A stretch of 61,199 bases of DNA, counting the filler. It is 4 parts of 4 records of this genome, joined end to end, with 100 filler letters (N's around TTAATTAATTAA, not from the genome) between each part and the next. Parts side by side here need not be neighbours in the genome. Positions count along the whole stretch, not along the records: positions 46,463 to 55,349 come from SRR20825006_2767; 3 more parts are not named here. One strand, 5' to 3'. A model generated the notes under the pieces. The model had not been told where the DNA came from. It made no database searches and was given only the letters and a program-made list of their open reading frames with translations. Shown piece by piece: positions 28,969 to 55,449 of the stretch. Both the position numbers and the translations under genes were made by a program. Within the stretch, counting starts at the first letter, position 1, and each line of letters starts with the position of its first letter.

Positions 28969-29068
28969 NNNNNNNNNNNNNNNNNNNNNNNNNNNNNNNN
29001 NNNNNNNNNNNNTTAATTAATTAANNNNNNNNNNNNNNNNNNNNNNNNNNNNNNNNNNNNNNNNNNNN
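28969..29068. other. Artificial contig spacer
   Basis: 44 N + TTAATTAATTAA (stops in all frames) + 44 N. Genes on both sides are truncated. Confidence 0.98.
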
Positions 29069-46362: not shown

Positions 46363-46462
46363 NNNNNNNNNNNNNNNNNNNNNNNNNNNNNNNNNNNNNN
46401 NNNNNNTTAATTAATTAANNNNNNNNNNNNNNNNNNNNNNNNNNNNNNNNNNNNNNNNNNNN
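46363..46462. other. Artificial contig spacer
   Basis: 44 N + TTAATTAATTAA + 44 N. Confidence 0.98.
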
Positions 46463-46669
46463 CAGAACTTCATCGCCAAGCAATACCCGGCCACGGTTGG
46501 GCGCAAGACGCCCAACAATGACGTTCAACAGCGTCGATTTGCCCGCACCATTTGGACCAATAATAGCGTGAACCGTGCCTTTCTTAACCCGAAGGTTAAT
46601 GTCAGACAACGCGCGCAAGCCGCCAAAATTCTTATCCACATCAGTTACATCAAGAATGTATTCAGACAT
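46463..46669 (-). CDS. LivG-like ABC ATPase, N-terminal fragment
   Basis: K.FGGL.AL, IIGPNGAGKST. Truncated by gap. Confidence 0.88.
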
Positions 46670-46672
46670 CGA

Positions 46673-47842
46673 TCAGACCTCCCCCGCCGAGTGTTGTTCT
46701 TTTTCTTTGCCCTCAGCCGAAGAAGCTGAAGACGCGCGGTTGGACACAAGACGCCACAGGCGATTGATCCCTTCCATGATGCCACCTGGCAGGAAGATCA
46801 CGATCAGCATGAAGACCAGACCAAGGGTCAGATGCCAGCCTTCGCCAACAAACAGACCAAGGATCGTTGCGACCCCGTGTGCGAGCCAATCGGGAAGGAA
46901 GGAAAACGCATTGAGAAGAACCGTCTCGTTAAAGGCCGAGAAGATATTTTCAAAATACTTGATAACCCCGGCCCCCAGAAGCGGACCAATCAGGGTTCCG
47001 ACACCGCCAAGAATGGTGATCAGAACGATCTCACCCGATGCTGTCCACTGCATGCGCTCAGCCCCTGCAAGCGGATCGGTCACCGCCAGAAGCGACCCGG
47101 CAAGACCGGCATACATGCCCGAGATGACAAAGGCCGTCATCAGATAGGGCCGTGTGTTGTACCCGGTATAGCCCATGCGGCTCTGGTTCGATTTAATCGC
47201 ACGCAGCTTCAGCCCGAACGGGGAGCGGAAGATGCGCAGATAGATGAAGAACGAGACAAGCATAAGGGCCGCACAGATATAGAAGCCGGAATAGCCGATG
47301 CCTTCGATGCCAAACAGGTTCGGTGTTGGAAGCGATGCGTCTGCTTCAATCCCGGACATGCGATCAAGAACACGCGGGTCCCCCTGCGTCAGTTGCAGAC
47401 CGGTTTCACCATTGGTGATCGGGGTCAGAACCGAATAGGCAAGGTTATAGGACATCTGTGCAAAGGCCAGCGTCAGGATCGAGAAATAAATCCCTGAACG
47501 ACGCAACGAGACATACCCGATGGCCAAGGCAAACAGACCGGAAAGAAGCGTTCCGAAAATCATCGCCGGGATGACATTCATCGAAAGTAACTTGAACGAC
47601 CAGACCGCTGTGTAGGACCCCACACCCAGGAAGGCCGCGTGACCGAAGGAAAGATAGCCGGTCAAACCAAACAGAATGTTATAGCCGATGGCAAAGATGC
47701 CAAAAATCATGAATTTCTGCATCAGGTCAGGATAGGCCGCCCCGAAAGGCTGGAGCCAGATCGGCATGGTCAGGACCACGACCGACAGAATGACCATGTA
47801 AAGGATATCCTGCTTTGGCGAGACGATTTTTGTGTTTGTCAT
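46673..47842 (-). CDS. LivM-like ABC permease
   Basis: [24 protein letters not shown] and ILGG.GTL.GP motifs. Confidence 0.9.
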
Positions 47843-47843
47843 T

Positions 47844-48860
47844 TTAGCTCTCCATCACGCCCCGACGACCCATCAGACCGCGCGGGCGGGTCAGCAGAAT
47901 AACGACGGCAACAAGATAAATGATGATCTGGTCAATGCCCGGGATGATTTCTTTCACCTCGGTCATGGACGAGAAGGATTGCAGAATACCCAGCAGGAAA
48001 CCTGCCAGAACTGCACCGGGTAGAGAGCCCATACCCCCAACGACCACCACAACAAATGACAGCACAAGGAAGTCCATTCCCAAATGATAATCCGGGGGAA
48101 GTACCGGGGTGTACATCACGCCTGCAAGGCCCGCGACAACCGCGGCCATACCAAACACAATTGTAAAGCGACGTTCAATATTGATGCCAAGAAGCTCGAC
48201 CGTTTCACGGTCTGCCATGCCTGCACGCACCACCATACCGTAGGTCGTGAAATGCAGGAACGAGAAGACAAGGCCAATAATTGTCAATGAGAACGCCAGA
48301 TAAATCAGACGCCACCAAGGATAAACAACGGCTTCACCCAGGCCGAACACGGCACCGATTGCGGCAGAACCGGAAACGATATCGGGTGCACCTTGCGGAA
48401 TCGGGTTGGCGCCAAAGGCAGCCTTGACCAATTCCTGAATAACAATCGCCAGACCAAAGGTCACAAGGATCTGTTCTGCATGGGAGCGTTTATAGAAATG
48501 CCGGATCAGGCTGCGTTCCATCACGATGCCGATTGCCAGCATCACGGGTATCGCAAGAATGATCGAGAGCGGCACGGACCAATCAATGATGGCTGTCCCG
48601 GTTTCGCCAAACCAGACTTCCAGATATGGCGTTTCCTTATAGGCATCAAAGAATGTCACGGATTCGTCCTTGACCTTAACGGACAAGGTCAGGAGCTTTT
48701 CCAAGCTCACCGCACAAAAGGCGCCGATCATGAAGATGGCGCCGTGGGCAAAGTTCACCACACCAAGTGTGCCGAACACCAAGGTCAGACCAAGAGCAAT
48801 CAGCGCGTAAGCGCCGCCCTTGTCCAGACCGTTGAGAATTTGAAGAAATATAGAGTCCAT
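47844..48860 (-). CDS. LivH-like ABC permease
   Basis: [12 protein letters not shown]...VVNFAHG and VVVGGMGS..G motifs. Confidence 0.9.
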
Positions 48861-48978: not shown

Positions 48979-50340
48979 TCAGACTTTGTACGGGCCCAGC
49001 TCACCACCGAACATGTCGGCAGGGTACTCAACCTGTGCACGCGGCACTTCTTTAACAACTTCAAGAAGGTCAAAGTTGGAAGAAGGCTCTTGTTTACCGC
49101 GCACAACCAGAACGTCTTTGAAGCACTGGTGATCTTCTGCACGGTACAGGGTCGGGCCATTGCCCGCGCCATCGAACTCGAAACCTTCGAGCTGTTTGAT
49201 GACTTCCCAAGGTGCAAACGTACCAGCCATTTCACAGGCGTTTGCATAAAGCAGCGTCTGTACATAGCAAGTGTGAGCAGCCTGGGATGGCGGGAAACCG
49301 TATTCCTGACCAAAGGATTTAACAAAGGCCTGCGACCCTGCATCCTGCAGCGACCAGTGCCAGTTGGTGGTACCCAGGATGCCTTTTGCAGCATCGCCAG
49401 CACCCTGTGCCATCAAGCGGGAATACAGCGGAACAACGATTTCGAAGTTTTTGCCGTTAACCTGTTTGTCACGCAGACCAAACTGAACAGCCTGTGTCAG
49501 CGAGTTGACCATGTCCTTACCATAGTGGTTCAGGATCAGGACATCTGCGCCAGAGTTCAGAACCGGTGTGATATACTGCGAGAAGTCACCAGCACCAACC
49601 GGGGTACGGACGGTATTCACAGTTTCCCAACCGATATTCTCGGTTGCAGCTTTGATCGATTCTTCCTGGGTCCAGCCCCAGGTGTAATCAGCCGTCAGGT
49701 GATACGCGCGACGTTCCGCACCATATTCATCCAGAAGAACCGGCGCAATTGCCTGACCGGACATGTAAGCGTTGAAGAAATGGCGGAAACCATAACGCTT
49801 TTTGTCTTTACCCGTGGTGTCGTTGGAGTGGGTCAGACCGGCCATGAAGATCACGCCCATTTCCTGGCAAAGACCCTGCACAGCAACCGCAACACCCGAT
49901 GACGAACCACCGGTGATCATTGCAACATTGTCTTTTTCGATCATGCGTTTTGCCGATGCACGTGCGGCATCGGATTTGGTCTGGGTATCACCGGTAACGA
50001 ACTCGACCTTCTTGCCGAGGATCCCGTTGCCTTTAAGCTGAAGCGGCTTCATGGTGTTCATCATCCCGCCGTCGCCTTCACCATTCAGGTGTTTGACAGC
50101 AAGCTGATAGGCGCGCAGCTCATCAGCACCTTCATCGGCATACGGGCCGGTCTGTGGTACGTTAAAGCCAAGCTTGATGCTGCCAGAGCTGCCCGGATCG
50201 CCCGGGAAAGTCTGAGCATGTGCGTTCTTGATGAAATGCATCGGAAAAGTGCCGCCAATAAGCGCAGCACCGGTCGTTGCCGCGGATCCTTTAAGGATCG
50301 TACGACGGGATACATCTTTAATAATCTTGGTCTCCGACAT
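48979..50340 (-). CDS. Tat-exported LivK-fold substrate-binding protein (probable short-chain carboxylate binding)
   Basis: SRRTILK Tat motif, P.TGPYA.EG, GGSSSGVA and ADYTWG motifs. GAGGA RBS. Substrate is inferred from context. Confidence 0.88.
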   Translation of the reverse strand: MSETKIIKDVSRRTILKGSAATTGAALIGGTFPMHFIKNAHAQTFPGDPGSSGSIKLGFNVPQTGPYADEGADELRAYQLAVKHLNGEGDGGMMNTMKPLQLKGNGILGKKVEFVTGDTQTKSDAARASAKRMIEKDNVAMITGGSSSGVAVAVQGLCQEMGVIFMAGLTHSNDTTGKDKKRYGFRHFFNAYMSGQAIAPVLLDEYGAERRAYHLTADYTWGWTQEESIKAATENIGWETVNTVRTPVGAGDFSQYITPVLNSGADVLILNHYGKDMVNSLTQAVQFGLRDKQVNGKNFEIVVPLYSRLMAQGAGDAAKGILGTTNWHWSLQDAGSQAFVKSFGQEYGFPPSQAAHTCYVQTLLYANACEMAGTFAPWEVIKQLEGFEFDGAGNGPTLYRAEDHQCFKDVLVVRGKQEPSSNFDLLEVVKEVPRAQVEYPADMFGGELGPYKV

Positions 50341-50479
50341 GGTTTTCCTCCCCAATGTCTTGGGATTTGTTTCAGAAAAATTCTGAGGCCTATTTTCTGG
50401 TTTGTTTTTTTCACGACCTGATCAAACAATGGGTGTCGTTTGAAAATGAATCAACACCTAGTTGATATAGAACAGTTTT

Positions 50480-50527
50480 TTTGTAAATATACAGACAGGC
50501 GACTTGAAAATTTGTAAATTTTGTCAA
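50480..50527. promoter_or_regulatory. Candidate ScfR-family operator octamers
   Basis: TTTGTAAA (50480-50487 and 50511-50518) and TTTGTCAA (50520-50527), resembling the TTTGCAAA sites of PccR/RamB/PrpR. Confidence 0.55.
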
Positions 50528-50542
50528 AAATGAGACTTTAGT

Positions 50543-52120
50543 ATGAACCGACAGGCCCCCATCGGACACCGCATTCGCGGTCGCCGAAAAGATATCGGAA
50601 TGACCCAGAATGCCCTGGCAAAGACCGCCGGCATTTCCCCGTCATATCTGAACCTTATCGAACATAACCGGCGTTCGATCGGGGGTGGTTTGCTGATGCG
50701 TATTGCCGAAGCACTCGACATCCAGCCCCATACTTTATCAGGGTCTGAAGAAAGCCGCCTGCTCTCGGACCTGAACGAAGCCGCATCCGATCCGGTCTTT
50801 CGCAGCACCCCGATTGAAAGCCGGGAGTTCCCGGCCACAATCGCCGCTGCCCCCGGTTTGATTGGTGCTTTTCTTTCTCTTTACCGGGCCTATCGCAGCG
50901 GACTTGAGGAAATTGACTCACTGTCCGAACGGCTCAGCCATGACCCGTTTCTGACCGAAGCCAGCCATTCGATCCTGACCCGGATCACTTCTATCCGGAC
51001 GGTCGCAGAGATTTTTGATGATTATGACGACCTGTCCAAGGAACAGCGCACACGGTTTAACGCAACACTGGTTCGGGAATCCCAAAGACTGGCCGAATCC
51101 GCGACCGAGATTTTCAACTTTCTTGAACGTGGCGATGCCGGACGCCCGGCCGCCAGCCCGGCCGAGGAAGTCGATGATCTTTTATATGATAACGCCAACT
51201 ACTTCCCGGCACTTGAAGACCATGCGACCGAAATGCGACCGCGAATTGATCCGGAAGGCGGGTTATTCCTGACCGATTTGATCAATTACCTTGAAAACAC
51301 CCATGACATTCGGGTCGAACGCCTGCCTTCCGAAGAATTCCCGACCAGCGGCCACAAATGGGATGCCGACCACCGGACCCTTAAGATTTCACGCGCCCTT
51401 CCGATTACGTCTGCGCGCTTTCAGGCCGCGCGCATGATTTTCCGGCTTGAATCCCCGGAAACTGTGAATGAAATCCTTAACCGCACCCAGATCGACAGTG
51501 ACGCCGGACGGGCCCGTGCAGCCGAGGCCCTGATTTCCTATGGCGCAGCCGCGCTTTTGTTTCCCTATGACCTGTTTCTTGAAGATGCCCGACGGTTTCG
51601 CCACGATATCGAGCTCCTTCAACAACGATATGCCGCCAGCTGGGAACAGATCTGCCACCGCCTGACCACACTGCGTCGACCGGGTGCTGAAGGCATACCT
51701 TTCCATCTGTTGCGAACAGATATTGCAGGCAATATTTCGAAACGATTTTCGGCATCCGGCCTTCAGTTACCGCGTTATAGCGGGGCCTGCCCACGCTGGG
51801 TCGTGCATGAAGCCTATATGGCACCAGACCGGGTGATCCCCCAATTCGTCCGCCTGCCAGACAACAGCGAATATCTTTTTGTTGCCCGCGCCTTGCGCAC
51901 TGGCGCGGGTGGATATGGTGTTCCCCGGTCGGTCTATTCGGTAATGATCGGGTGCGATACGGCCTTTGCCCATGACGTGGTTTATGGTGATCGATTGTCA
52001 TTGGATCGCCCGGATTCTGCGGTTCCGGTGGGCATTGGCTGTCGTCAATGCCCCCGCAATGATTGCGGCCAGCGGGCTTATGAAATGTCGGATACGGCAA
52101 CCGCGCAAATCGCTGTATAG
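50543..52120 (+). CDS. Short-chain fatty acyl-CoA regulator (ScfR; RamB/PrpR/PccR family) with an internal DHp-like segment
   Basis: XRE HTH (ISPSYLNLIEHNRR), NYFP.LE, S.EQ.CHRLTTL.RPG, D.AGN.SKRFSA, GACP.W and C-terminal CxxCxxxxCxxRA. Confidence 0.92.
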   Translation: MNRQAPIGHRIRGRRKDIGMTQNALAKTAGISPSYLNLIEHNRRSIGGGLLMRIAEALDIQPHTLSGSEESRLLSDLNEAASDPVFRSTPIESREFPATIAAAPGLIGAFLSLYRAYRSGLEEIDSLSERLSHDPFLTEASHSILTRITSIRTVAEIFDDYDDLSKEQRTRFNATLVRESQRLAESATEIFNFLERGDAGRPAASPAEEVDDLLYDNANYFPALEDHATEMRPRIDPEGGLFLTDLINYLENTHDIRVERLPSEEFPTSGHKWDADHRTLKISRALPITSARFQAARMIFRLESPETVNEILNRTQIDSDAGRARAAEALISYGAAALLFPYDLFLEDARRFRHDIELLQQRYAASWEQICHRLTTLRRPGAEGIPFHLLRTDIAGNISKRFSASGLQLPRYSGACPRWVVHEAYMAPDRVIPQFVRLPDNSEYLFVARALRTGAGGYGVPRSVYSVMIGCDTAFAHDVVYGDRLSLDRPDSAVPVGIGCRQCPRNDCGQRAYEMSDTATAQIAV

Positions 52121-52252
52121 CCATCAAAATCACGTCATTTTCGGCCCTAACTGAAAGCATGAAACATACCACCCCAAAGTAGCATTATAATTCGATGCAT
52201 AACCCGCTAGGATTGGGGCATATAAGAATCCGATAAATCGGGGAGAACGTCC

Positions 52253-52636
52253 TTGAATAAGAGACCAAAGGTCCTGATTGCCGAAGATGAGGAAACCATT
52301 GTTGAGTCGCTGAGCTTTCTTATGGAAAAAGAAGGCTATGAAGTCAGTGTGGCCACCGATGGCCAAACCGCGATCAAAATGATTGCGCGCGACATTCCTG
52401 ATATGGTTTTGCTTGATGTGATGATGCCCGGCTGTGACGGGTTCGAAGTGGTGCGCGCGGCACGCGCCGATCCAAAGACCAAACGCATTCCGATCATGAT
52501 GTTGACGGCAAAAACACGCGAAGTCGACCGCCGCAAAGGACTTGAACTTGGCGTTGATGATTTTGTGACCAAACCTTTTTCGACCCGCGATGTCGTTGCC
52601 CGGGTCAAAGCCCTGCTTGAACGAAGCGAATGCTGA
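52253..52636 (+). CDS. Single-domain response regulator (receiver only)
   Basis: IAEDE, LLD55VMMP, LTA and KPF motifs, 127 aa with no output domain. GGGGAG RBS and TTG start. Confidence 0.92.
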   Translation: MNKRPKVLIAEDEETIVESLSFLMEKEGYEVSVATDGQTAIKMIARDIPDMVLLDVMMPGCDGFEVVRAARADPKTKRIPIMMLTAKTREVDRRKGLELGVDDFVTKPFSTRDVVARVKALLERSEC

Positions 52637-52669
52637 TACGCGTTTAACCGACAGGCAGGAGCCAACCCC

Positions 52670-52894
52670 ATGACACCACCGCGCAAAATGACAGAACGGG
52701 CATTCGTCCTTGTCCTGGCCGCGTTTTTTGTCTGGATGCCACCACTGGTTGGCGTGTTTTCCCTTGATGGAACGCTATTTGGCCTGCCTATCCTGTTTGT
52801 CTATTTCTTTGCAGGCTGGGCAACGCTGATTGCGCTTTGTGCGGTTTTGACGCGCGCCCTTCGCAAAGTAGGCCAGTCAGAGGGATCATCTTAA
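52670..52894 (+). CDS. 74-aa two-TM membrane protein coupled to the SLC5 kinase
   Basis: AGGAG RBS, two hydrophobic helices around FGLP, and a TAAATG junction with the next gene. Confidence 0.75.
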   Translation: MTPPRKMTERAFVLVLAAFFVWMPPLVGVFSLDGTLFGLPILFVYFFAGWATLIALCAVLTRALRKVGQSEGSS

Positions 52895-55349
52895 ATGCTT
52901 TCCTCTGAACTGGTTATCACGGTCTCACTCAGCTATGTCGGCTTGCTGTATGCCATTGCATGGTGGGGGGATAAACGTGCACGTGATGGCCGATCATGGG
53001 TCAGGAACCCGACGGTTTATACCTTATCAATCGCGGTCTATTGCACATCATGGACGTTTTATGGTGCAGTCGGGACGGCAGCACGCAACGGGCTTGAATA
53101 TCTGACCATTTATCTTGGGCCGACGGTCATTTTCTTAGGTTGGTGGTTCTTGCTGCGCAAGATGCTTCGCATCTCCAAGGCACACCGCATCACATCGATT
53201 GCCGATTTTATTTCATCGCGGTATGGCAAAAGCACGCAGCTTTCCGTGCTTGTCACCCTGATCGCCGTGATCGGAACGACCCCTTATATTGCGCTTCAGC
53301 TTAAGGCAATTGCCACCAGCTATACGGTTCTGACGGTTTGGGATCACGGCATTTTCCCGGCCACCCACGAAACCGTAAGCATGTTTTCAGACAGCGGATT
53401 CTGGGCGGCTGTCGGGCTTGCGCTGTTTGGTATTTTGTTTGGCACGCGCTTTATCGATGCAGACGAACATCACGAAGGCATGGTTGCCGCCATCGCCTTT
53501 GAAAGTCTGGTCAAGATGTTTGCGCTTTTGGCCGTTGGCATCTTTGTCTGCTTTGTCATGTATGGCGGAATTGGCGAACTGTTTGCCCAGGCTGCGCGCA
53601 ATGCCGACACAGCCAAACTTTTGCAATTGCCCGAAGATGGTGCTGCGCGCTGGACAACATTGATGATGCTGTCCATGGCCGCCATCCTGTGTTTGCCGCG
53701 CCAGTTTCAGGTCATCATTGTTGAAAATGTCGATGAACGGCATTTGCCGACAGCAAGCTGGGCCTTTCCGCTTTATCTATTGCTGATGAACCTGTTTGTC
53801 CTGCCCATAGCACTGGCGGGGCTTGGCACCCTGCCCGCATGGTCGGACCCGGATTTCTTTGTGATTTCAGTCCCGTTATTTGAAGGGCAATCCTTGCTGG
53901 CGCTATTGGCGTATGTTGGCGGGTTGTCGGCCAGTACCAGTATGGTCATTGTGGCAACCATCGCACTTTCGACCATGGTCTGTAACGATCTGGTCGTTCC
54001 GGCATTGCTGCGTATCCGTCCCTTTCGGCTGACCGAACGCGATGATCTGACCGGGCTTTTGATCACTATCCGCCGGGCATCCATCGTTGCTGTCGTATTT
54101 TTGGGATTTGCCTATTATAGATCCGCCGGGGCGAGTGACGCCTTGGCCGAAATCGGCCTGATATCCTTTGCCGCAACGGCACAATTTATCCCGATTATGA
54201 TCGGTGGCCTTTACTGGAAAGGCGGGACCAAAACCGGCGCACAGGTTGGTCTTGTCATCGGCTTTATCCTGTGGGGTTATACCCTGTTGCTGCCATCACT
54301 TGCCGATAGCGGCTGGATGGACCCGGCCTTGATCCTGAACGGGGCGTTTGGCCATCCGTGGTTGCGGCCTGAAAGCCTGTTTGGCCTGACAGACTTTGAA
54401 CCCCTGACCCATGCGCTGATCTGGTCGATTTCGCTGAATACCGCATCCTTTGTCCTGATCAGTCTGTTTACCCAACCAAGCGCACTTGAACGTATTCAGG
54501 CAACTTTGTTTGTCGATGCCTTTTCGCGCAAAGGGCAGGATACCGTGATTTGGCGATCATCGGCCTCGGTCGATGATTTATATGAACTGGTTGAACGGTT
54601 TCTGGGCCGCGAACGCGCCTTTCATTCATTCCGCGATTTTGGCTGGGAAAAAGACACGCCATGGCGCGGAAAGGGCGAAGCCAATGCCGATATGATTGCC
54701 TTTACCGAACGCCTTCTTGCCGGGTCCATCGGGGCGGCATCGGCACGTGTTATGGTGTCATCGGTCGCCAAGGGGGAAATGGTCAGCCTTGAAGAGGTTC
54801 TTGAGATCCTTGAAGAAACCTCGCACGTCATCGAATATTCCCAGCGTCTGGAACAGAAATCCCACGAACTTGAACAGGCTGCGGCAGAATTGCGCGCCGC
54901 CAATGACCGGCTCAAGGAACTTGATAAGCTTAAAGATGAGTTCCTGACCATGGTCAGTCATGAATTCAGAACGCCGCTGACGTCTATCCGGTCATTTTCG
55001 GAAATTCTGGTCGATACGCCAAATCTGGATCATGAGCGTGCTGAACATTTCCTCAGCATCATTGTGCGGGAAAGCGAACGGCTGACCCGACTGATTGACG
55101 ATCACCTTGATCTGGCCCGCCTTGAAGCGGGTCATTCGGACTGGCGGGCTGTCGATGTCGATCCGCGCACGGTTCTTGATGAAAGTGTTGATGCGGTCAA
55201 AGGCCTGATGGACCGCAAGGGTGTTATTCTATCGACGGAATTTTCGCGCCAGACGGTGCGGCTGTTTGTTGATCGGGATCGCCTGACACAGGTCTTTATC
55301 AACCTTTTGTCAAATGCCGCCAAATTTTCCCACCCCGACCAGCCCACCG
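52895..55349 (+). CDS. Na+/solute symporter (SLC5)-STAC-histidine kinase fusion, CrbS/MxtR-like (3' truncated)
   Basis: YTLS.AVYCTSWTFYG.VG, SIADFISSRYGKS, PYIALQLKA, CLPRQF, STAC-like LAGSIGAASAR, H-box SHEFRTPL and N-box NLLSNAAKF. Confidence 0.92.
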
Positions 55350-55449
55350 NNNNNNNNNNNNNNNNNNNNNNNNNNNNNNNNNNNNNNNNNNNNTTAATTA
55401 ATTAANNNNNNNNNNNNNNNNNNNNNNNNNNNNNNNNNNNNNNNNNNNN
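55350..55449. other. Artificial contig spacer
   Basis: 44 N + TTAATTAATTAA + 44 N. Confidence 0.98.

Follow-up and report, generated by a model that had tools for sequence, protein, structure and literature searches.

The outputs of single-domain response regulators are mostly unknown. Among the proteins that meet receiver domains, Spo0B and ChpT have the fold of the dimerisation and histidine phosphotransfer (DHp) domain of histidine kinases without ATPase activity; both are separate proteins and need an invariant histidine. DivL is described in the accessible part of PMC4211667 to bind phosphorylated DivK (DivK~P) by its docking face, without kinase or phosphatase activity. For the ScfR transcription factors, one Paracoccus gene, Pden_1785, is reported to cluster with a two-component system (PMC10370305, accessible sections). 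Here we describe a locus at positions 50543-55349 of a window (the whole stretch of DNA that was analysed, 61,199 nucleotides), encoding an ScfR/PrpR-family regulator, a lone receiver and a transporter-kinase. The regulator carries an insert resembling the DHp domain of the kinase, here called pseudo-DHp. Insertion, fold and family origin of this segment were established computationally. With slightly better than even chances, the kinase sets the phosphorylation of D55 of the receiver, and the receiver docks on the pseudo-DHp and allosterically gates DNA binding alongside acyl-coenzyme A (acyl-CoA) sensing; every binding and phosphorylation step of this wiring we infer.

An earlier note on this DNA had aligned residues 134-183 of the regulator (50942-51091) without gaps to residues 681-730 of the kinase (54935-55084) with 23 identities in 50 positions. 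Coordinates and count could be reproduced, as could the pairing of H142 with H689 and the Asp at residue 55 of the receiver. The best 50-residue window over 300 shuffles of the kinase averaged 10 identities with a maximum of 14, and 16 unrelated DHp-like segments from the fetched loci (first H-box motif match, ungapped) shared 4-14 of 50 positions with the insert. With 60 orthologous SLC5 kinases 17-25 of 50 positions were identical. Thus, the likeness is to the kinase family and not specially to the adjoining copy. Used as a 63-residue query, the insert detected the cognate kinase with 31-40 bits in three of three genomes, the next kinase reaching at most 16 bits; 5-7 first-look candidates were scored per genome with these single-insert queries.

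The expected folding of the insert as a DHp hairpin was supported by models with two helices. The top Foldseek matches of the insert model were the DHp domain of HK853, with template modelling (TM) scores of 0.66-0.69 over the query, a root-mean-square deviation of 2.2-2.5 and expectation (E) values of 0.05-0.15, which are weak. A profile of 45 inserts compared with solved structures matched HK853 (E 7e-7) and DivL (E 7e-4). Matches of this profile to Protein A were rejected as summed weak repeats. The HisKA search suggested earlier gave a divided result: this copy stayed below the gathering score of Pfam PF00512 (15-20 bits vs 26.9), but 33 of 45 relatives matched with E ≤0.01, the best with 6e-12. 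PF00512 is also precomputed on many homologues, and two are automatically named histidine kinase in UniRef. In the ESM Atlas just unnamed or helix-turn-helix (HTH) clusters were found, under 0.9.

The span 117-209 comprises 92-100 residues in insert-bearing regulators and 25-43 residues in 62 insert-less ones, and the insert is missing from PrpR of M. tuberculosis in the alignment. Judged from the aligned sequences, about 60 residues have truly been inserted, as one discrete segment, in the domain II coiled coil. In a quick tree calculated without the insert region, 55 insert-bearing and 61 insert-less regulators were parted by one branch (Shimodaira-Hasegawa-like approximate likelihood ratio test 98), the insert-less set being a sample of close relatives and not the whole family. 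Inserts with the fullest H-box adjoin the insert-less group. This tree would fit a single capture of a DHp that was intact at first and decayed afterwards. Gene conversion was rejected as source of the likeness, with identical codons at 393/717 in cognate and 55.6% in non-cognate comparisons.

In none of the genomes examined was the insert found without the kinase, as the earlier note would lead one to expect. Three samples were used, which overlap and in which kin are not independent. Among the 80 GTDB loci listed, 22 had the insert; kinase and lone receiver were present in the fetched DNA of 17 of these, and the remaining five genomes carried the kinase elsewhere (22/22 overall). The kinase was near none of the 58 insert-less loci. 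In a class-wide sample of 301 genomes of Alphaproteobacteria the regulator was found in 35 and the kinase in all 35, in 30 cases within 20 kb. The phylum-wide sample of 401 genomes contained 36 with the regulator, and a second, kinase-sized match was detected in 36/36; such matches were confirmed by fetching for 15 of the 25 kinase-only genomes and for three regulator genomes new to that sample. Since 12-15 candidates were scored per genome in the class and phylum samples, absences mean 'not found'. In the 401-genome sample 28 of the 29 sampled members of one family (f1) had the regulator. Regulator, kinase and receiver lie at three separate places in one genome (G219).

These counts bear on the explanation that the insert is a mere dimerisation element, captured from the adjoining kinase, and that shared metabolism keeps the genes together. 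DHp hairpins dimerise, and a single insertion event explains all copies, so that the co-occurrence is partly shared descent. We consider this explanation very improbable, given that surface residues stay kinase-like across distant families, that the kinase accompanies the insert even where the genes are unlinked, and that the likeness is not maintained by gene conversion.

As claimed previously, the regulator has no ATPase domain (no PAS or ATPase-like domain was found by Pfam either) and lacks the acid at H+1. Of the H-box, just His and Thr are present in this copy; the H+1 acid, the H+3 Arg and the H+5 Pro are gone. The motif H-E-x-R-T-P was found in all 61 kinases. Of 57 inserts, 46 have the His, 41 Thr+4, 15 the +1 acid, 13 Arg+3 and none Pro+5 (residue counts on these inserts and on paired sets leave out L009, with a frameshifted regulator; L002 duplicates L095). 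In the other 11 inserts, on several branches, the His is replaced by F, Y, Q or N, all in genomes that have retained the kinase, and mostly with an adjacent receiver; a His-less orthologue occurs in Sneathiella. The earlier note had proposed that the same receiver docks on both DHp surfaces and acts either by relay or by allostery. Because the His is lost in these 11 inserts with the kinase kept, the allosteric branch is preferred; as a general rule, phosphotransfer to H142 lacks support.

A true phosphorelay H689 -> D55 -> H142, in which the phospho-His switches the factor, is unlikely in view of these replacements and of the loss of the H-box Pro in all inserts. It would agree with the retention of His in most inserts and in 95 of 121 protein homologues, and with the near-complete H-box of those inserts nearest to the insert-less regulators (HExRT 5/57). 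The lost +1 acid does not exclude a relay, since this residue serves ATP-driven autophosphorylation (bioRxiv 2020.06.26.173310, accessible part), which is needless without an ATPase. In His-keeping lineages such as that of this regulator the relay could still hold.

The same source, as far as accessible, describes that H+4 governs the phosphatase activity of HisKA proteins independently of H+1, and Thr or Ser occupies H+4 in 52 of 58 inserts. This would suit an insert that, under control of acyl-CoA, dephosphorylates the receiver or drains phosphate from it, so that metabolism would act back on the kinase pathway. Such a role is quite improbable: it leaves the receiver without output in many loci having no other candidate effector, and H+4 is Asn, Ala or Asp in some inserts.

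For the docking face, the HK853 specificity positions A268, A271, T275, V294 and D297 were taken from Protein Data Bank titles and mapped onto the insert. Receiver-facing residues of the inserts are kinase-like at +8, +11 and +15 and in part at +33: the kinase consensus was matched at +15 in 57/57 inserts (Ile), at +11 in 46/57, at +8 in 33/57 (others A, T or N) and at +33 in 31/57. Positions +7, +11 and +15 of the docking face are kept, +3 and +12 are not. The distal half of helix 2 has drifted, with +43 kinase-like in 0/57, and the bundle-core positions -2, +34, +45 and +48 are at kinase consensus in just 1, 16, 5 and 9 of 57 inserts. Furthermore, when compared in register, inserts are closer to their own kinase than to others (31 dereplicated triples); of nine shifted controls all lay near zero apart from one with p 0.02. 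The proposed co-variation of insert and kinase was thus detected in register, but the five specificity positions do not stand out in it (p 0.067). We regard it as suggestive.

The co-variation includes +6, +35, +39 and +45, some of them inward-facing, which would suit a mixed four-helix bundle of insert and kinase DHp that inhibits the kinase or tethers the factor to the membrane, with the receiver acting elsewhere. Separate His-less kinase copies beside the kinase in L120 and L121 point in the same direction. Only a small probability is given to this arrangement, because the core positions drifted and the outward docking face was kept. Moreover, the lone receiver is retained, and some split loci have a receiver copy on the regulator side (L011, L096, L101).

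The complex of receiver and regulator, whose prediction had been proposed, was modelled with ESMFold2 from two inserts and two receivers without alignments. It scored above the controls (0.48 vs 0.00 for the best control), with weak support as verdict. Among solved pairs 51 of 78 attain the mark applied, among mismatched pairs 2 of 108. The runs agreed in at least 89% of contacts, with a partner predicted local distance difference test (pLDDT) value of at least 83.

In the preferred allosteric reading, the transporter-kinase and a small membrane partner would set the D55 phosphorylation of the lone receiver, as suggested by intact catalytic residues and gene order. The receiver is without an effector of its own and therefore would act by binding. 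It would dock on the pseudo-DHp, which was probably copied once from the docking helices of the kinase and lies between the DNA-binding and CoA-binding parts. In the regulator oligomer, two inserts may pack into a four-helix bundle. When the receiver binds, probably depending on its phosphorylation as DivK~P does with DivL, this bundle would shift and with it the DNA-binding heads. Stable phosphotransfer to H142 would be unnecessary. As the C-terminal part keeps the PrpR fold and the iron-sulfur (Fe-S) ligands, acyl-CoA status would be a second input by family likeness. The output would be transcription from tandem TTGTAAA boxes between regulator and divergent uptake operon, which in some genomes runs into acetyl-CoA synthetase.

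Several results speak against this mechanism. The His, kept in 81% of inserts, exceeds its neighbours in conservation. At +3, where DivL requires Arg to bind DivK~P, most inserts have Leu (Arg 13/57), and +12 is variable (Phe 22/57); both positions are important in DivL (PMC4211667, accessible part). Of two clades, one shows significant co-variation (p 0.001) and the other does not (p 0.13); the signal includes core positions and was obtained with non-independent kin. Just 5 of the 78 solved pairs passed with complex scores of at most 0.60, as did all 4 passing mismatches (of 180), and the pass may reflect likeness, since DHp-receiver complexes are already solved. Finally, no regulator was found in 11 of 46 and 25 of 61 genomes that have the kinase, and a second pseudo-DHp, described below, departs from the kinase at the docking positions +7, +8, +12 and +15. 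From the phylum sample, 24 of the 25 kinase-only genomes lie outside the class.

This second pseudo-DHp was found in a protein of about 700 amino acids (aa) with PAS and DEDDh exonuclease domains, which adjoins the lone receiver in 20 of 26 kinase loci from regulator-less genomes (examples in the table). The protein has an N-terminal membrane/coiled region, PAS, a DHp-like segment without His, a region that by eye looks like a degenerate ATPase, and the DEDDh exonuclease, the DHp-like segment being placed between PAS and exonuclease. In the DHp-like segment the His is present in 0/22 proteins; Arg+3 (22/22), Phe+30, Glu+37 and Leu+41 are kept. The protein looks like an uncharacterised signalling exonuclease. 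Its loci often contain DUF294/CBS, ActP-like symporter and acs genes, and two regulator loci (L021, L085) also hold the full exonuclease protein. Further His-less copies of the kinase DHp are present in two soluble pseudokinases with HATPase_c (L120:7054-8202, L121:12561-13511) and in a protein of 206 aa with a DHp-like stretch only (L116:15980-16600). Among the comparative arguments, the recurrence of a His-free DHp beside the receiver speaks most strongly for docking and against relay, even if the docking face of this second copy is less kinase-like. More tentatively, and with somewhat less than even chances, detached DHp copies in which the His is dispensable may serve as plug-in inputs of a pathway widespread in Proteobacteria: one transporter-kinase and lone receiver would drive whichever effector bears the plug, the Fe-S/acyl-CoA factor in Alphaproteobacteria and the PAS-DEDDh exonuclease in other lineages.

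The features of the locus and the exonuclease examples are collected in the table.

Table. Features of the regulator-receiver-kinase locus (window positions) and examples of the exonuclease protein (positions within fetched loci)
Feature	Position	Strand	Basis or remark
Branched-chain-type ATP-binding cassette (ABC) permease, LivM-like	46673..47842	-	Pfam BPD_transp_2; conserved neighbour of regulator; part of likely target operon
Branched-chain-type ABC permease, LivH-like	47844..48860	-	Pfam BPD_transp_2
Periplasmic binding protein, twin-arginine (Tat) signal, divergent from regulator	48979..50355	-	Pfam Peripla_BP_6 E 3e-71; 48/61 regulator loci
Predicted ScfR operator: TTGTAAA 50481-50487 and 50512-50518 (31 bp apart), TTGTCAA 50521-50527	50481..50527	+	Motif comparison
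ScfR/PrpR-family regulator, 525 aa: XRE HTH (11-62), domain II with insert, IrrE-like DIII, GAF-like ScfR domain	50543..52120	+	
Pseudo-DHp insert, residues 134-195, helices 135-160 and 166-195; H142 at 50966-50968	50942..51127	+	
Four predicted [4Fe-4S] ligands: C416, C500-x2-C503-x4-C508	51788..52066	+	Alignment with M. tuberculosis PrpR
Single-domain response regulator, 127 aa, D55 (52415-52417), T85, K107	52253..52636	+	
Hydrophobic membrane open reading frame (ORF), 74 aa, abutting kinase start	52670..52894	+	Conserved in 16/23 loci of one set, most loci of another
Membrane transporter-kinase (SLC5/STAC type), DHp 54932-55132, H689 at 54959-54961	52895..55349	+	HisKA E 8e-19
Exonuclease protein, examples (19 more)	L120:371-2479, L128:12493-14595, L147:12358-14481		

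With a Thalassospira lucentensis protein the regulator shares 99% identity. Its XRE HTH scored 42 bits as HTH_3 (cut-off 23) and its ScfRs domain (PF09856) 172 bits (cut-off 24); the cut-off of the RamB equivalog NF038139 was missed (339 vs 700 bits). The AlphaFold model (pLDDT 88) matched M. tuberculosis PrpR (6cyy) in Foldseek with E 7e-27 and a TM score of 0.87 over the target. By all sequence tests applied, the protein is a member of ScfR/IsaR and not a RamB equivalog. All four predicted Fe-S cysteines are kept in 57/57 insert-bearing regulators (one with a 3-residue last spacing); the ligand role of these cysteines is known from PrpR (PMC6765138, accessible part). Binding of acyl-CoA and of an Fe-S cluster by the regulator can be inferred from the family.

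Regulators of family f1 (L095:5796-7148, L115:9257-10645, L119:9219-10496) have 425-462 aa and a shortened, strongly diverged DIII/GAF part; insert and four Cys are kept. Acyl-CoA sensing may be altered in this family while the insert input persists. The nearest genome (G001) carries a diverged insert-bearing regulator copy. Regulator or kinase lie in two frames in L009:3799-5384, L013:12303-14799 and L150:9391-12169, which are probably assembly errors. In L010:15241-18287 and L031:6653-9887 an insert-less ScfR paralogue adjoins the insert-bearing system, together with a gene that resembles isocitrate lyase.

The absence of an output domain from the receiver was confirmed by Pfam, and D55 and K107 are invariant in 44/44 paired orthologues. 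Two lone-receiver copies occur in L011, L096, L021 and L101 with L122. In L011, L096 and G002 the copies are divided between regulator and kinase, one adjoining each, and in L021 one stands beside the exonuclease protein; specialisation of the duplicates is possible. In T. lucentensis HF2 (L006:12235-15431) a TonB-dependent receptor gene and a DJ-1/PfpI gene lie between regulator and receiver. The 74-codon ORF between receiver and kinase was missing from the earlier note; no Pfam match below E 0.38 was found for it. By position it may be the analogue of CbrX, a membrane subunit of CbrA in the accessible part of PMC13022988.

Full-length orthologues of the kinase have 906-958 aa with HisKA and HATPase_c, without PAS and without receiver. 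By its architecture the kinase is not a CrbS orthologue; its partner is a lone receiver and not of LuxR type as with CrbS/MxtR. Over 537 aa its membrane part shares 52% identity with a CrbS-like hybrid kinase (L130), and over 134 aa 29% with a symporter. No SSF or STAC match was obtained with Pfam; the SLC5/STAC label is a putative one, drawn from these identities and from the layout of the family. A DNA-binding response regulator conserved past the kinase could have accounted for the output. Among 48 loci with both genes, one such gene was present (OmpR-type, L008, not conserved), in line with the earlier proposal. In L127:8535-9200, from a genome without insert regulator, a LuxR-type response regulator directly follows the non-hybrid kinase, and in L130:4784-9165 a CrbS-like hybrid kinase with LuxR-type regulator adjoins the non-hybrid kinase.

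Of 55 insert-bearing regulators, 44 have TTGTAAA in their upstream region, where 2.2 would be expected (upstream regions of L050 and L062 left out); the commonest spacing is 31-32 bp. It also occurs upstream of 40 of 61 insert-less regulators and is thus a general ScfR box; across the window alone it is not enriched (3 found, 2.3 expected). The RamB_Pd site of Paracoccus has two boxes with an 18-bp spacer (PMC10370305, section 7 as accessible), which the period of about 32 bp here would fit. The boxes are a predicted operator of the regulator, through which it may act as activator. Beside the regulator (61 loci, one genome twice) uptake genes were found as ABC systems in 48 and as sodium:solute symporters in 7 loci, and acetyl-CoA synthetase in 8. 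By this gene context the signal is likely a short-chain carboxylate.

The window consists of four contigs joined by N spacers, with guanine-plus-cytosine (GC) contents of 61, 58, 53 and 57%; the locus lies on the third contig (46463-55349, 53% GC). The spacers (28969-29068, 46363-46462, 55350-55449) are N runs flanking a short palindromic tag. They are artificial, so that ORFs spanning them are artefacts. The contig ends truncate the ATPase gene after the LivM-like permease (at 46463) and the transporter-kinase within its ATPase domain (at 55349). For the periplasmic binding protein, comparison with solved structures gave no close relative. A scan for promoters and terminators showed no excess over shuffles, and none of the viral contigs compared matched. 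The flanking contigs seemingly belong to other organisms, with housekeeping genes, a sugar ABC transporter, a deoxyhypusine synthase-like gene and a chemoreceptor with zinc-binding domain.

Full-text searches of the literature gave no description of a DHp insert in ScfR proteins; their coverage did not extend to Carter and Alber 2015 on the classes of ScfR or to the paper that first described STAC, and either might mention the subfamily. The insert is undescribed in the accessible parts of PMC12632250, PMC10370305, PMC6765138, PMC9100948, PMC5715377, PMC4211667, PMC13022988, PMC12471899, PMC9007349, bioRxiv 072470 and bioRxiv 2020.06.26.173310. No matches were contained in one supplementary file of PMC10370305 and four of PMC9007349.

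The regulator offers a concrete target encoded beside a single-domain response regulator in 35 of the 301 Alphaproteobacteria sampled and in 28 of 29 sampled members of the large family f1, which includes roseobacters. If the proposed wiring is true, the DivK-DivL principle would reach from cell-cycle control to direct gene regulation, the domain II region of ScfR proteins would be given a function, and an outside solute signal and the inside acyl-CoA status would be combined on one factor. The plug-in reading, if true, would add a distinct route to new two-component outputs, by which a one-component regulator that itself has no receiver domain becomes the last member of a kinase pathway; a signalling exonuclease is indicated as second output.

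In general, the parts of the locus resemble described systems. CrbS(MxtR)/CrbR, RpuS/RpuR and CbrA/CbrB share with the kinase a transporter-like membrane domain and HisKA, and the cbrX-like small upstream membrane ORF, acs, ActP-like symporters and DUF294 proteins occur near it as in SLC5/STAC systems. In contrast, this kinase lacks PAS and a fused receiver and has a single-domain receiver as partner, whereas the SLC5/STAC partners are LuxR or sigma-54 regulators in the accessible parts of PMC9100948, PMC5715377 and PMC13022988. The ScfR/IsaR proteins (PrpR 6cyy, 6cz6; Paracoccus RamB; Rhodobacter PccR) correspond to the regulator in the XRE HTH, the DIII-GAF core, the four Fe-S Cys and the tandem boxes about 32 bp apart; what the regulator adds is the kinase-derived insert of 60 residues and the linkage to kinase and receiver. 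Unlike Spo0B and ChpT, the DHp module sits inside a transcription factor, and its His is dispensable in several lineages. With DivJ/PleC-DivK-DivL of Caulobacter the system would share a lone receiver read by a repurposed DHp via its normal docking face. However, DivL is complete as a pseudokinase, sits in the membrane, has PAS and ATPase-like domains and acts on another kinase, and its Arg+3 is mostly lost in the inserts, whereas in the regulator the hairpin alone is grafted into a DNA-binding, metabolite-sensing factor. The observed arrangement is real and widespread, and the proposed wiring is apparently undescribed, its principle being already known from these systems.

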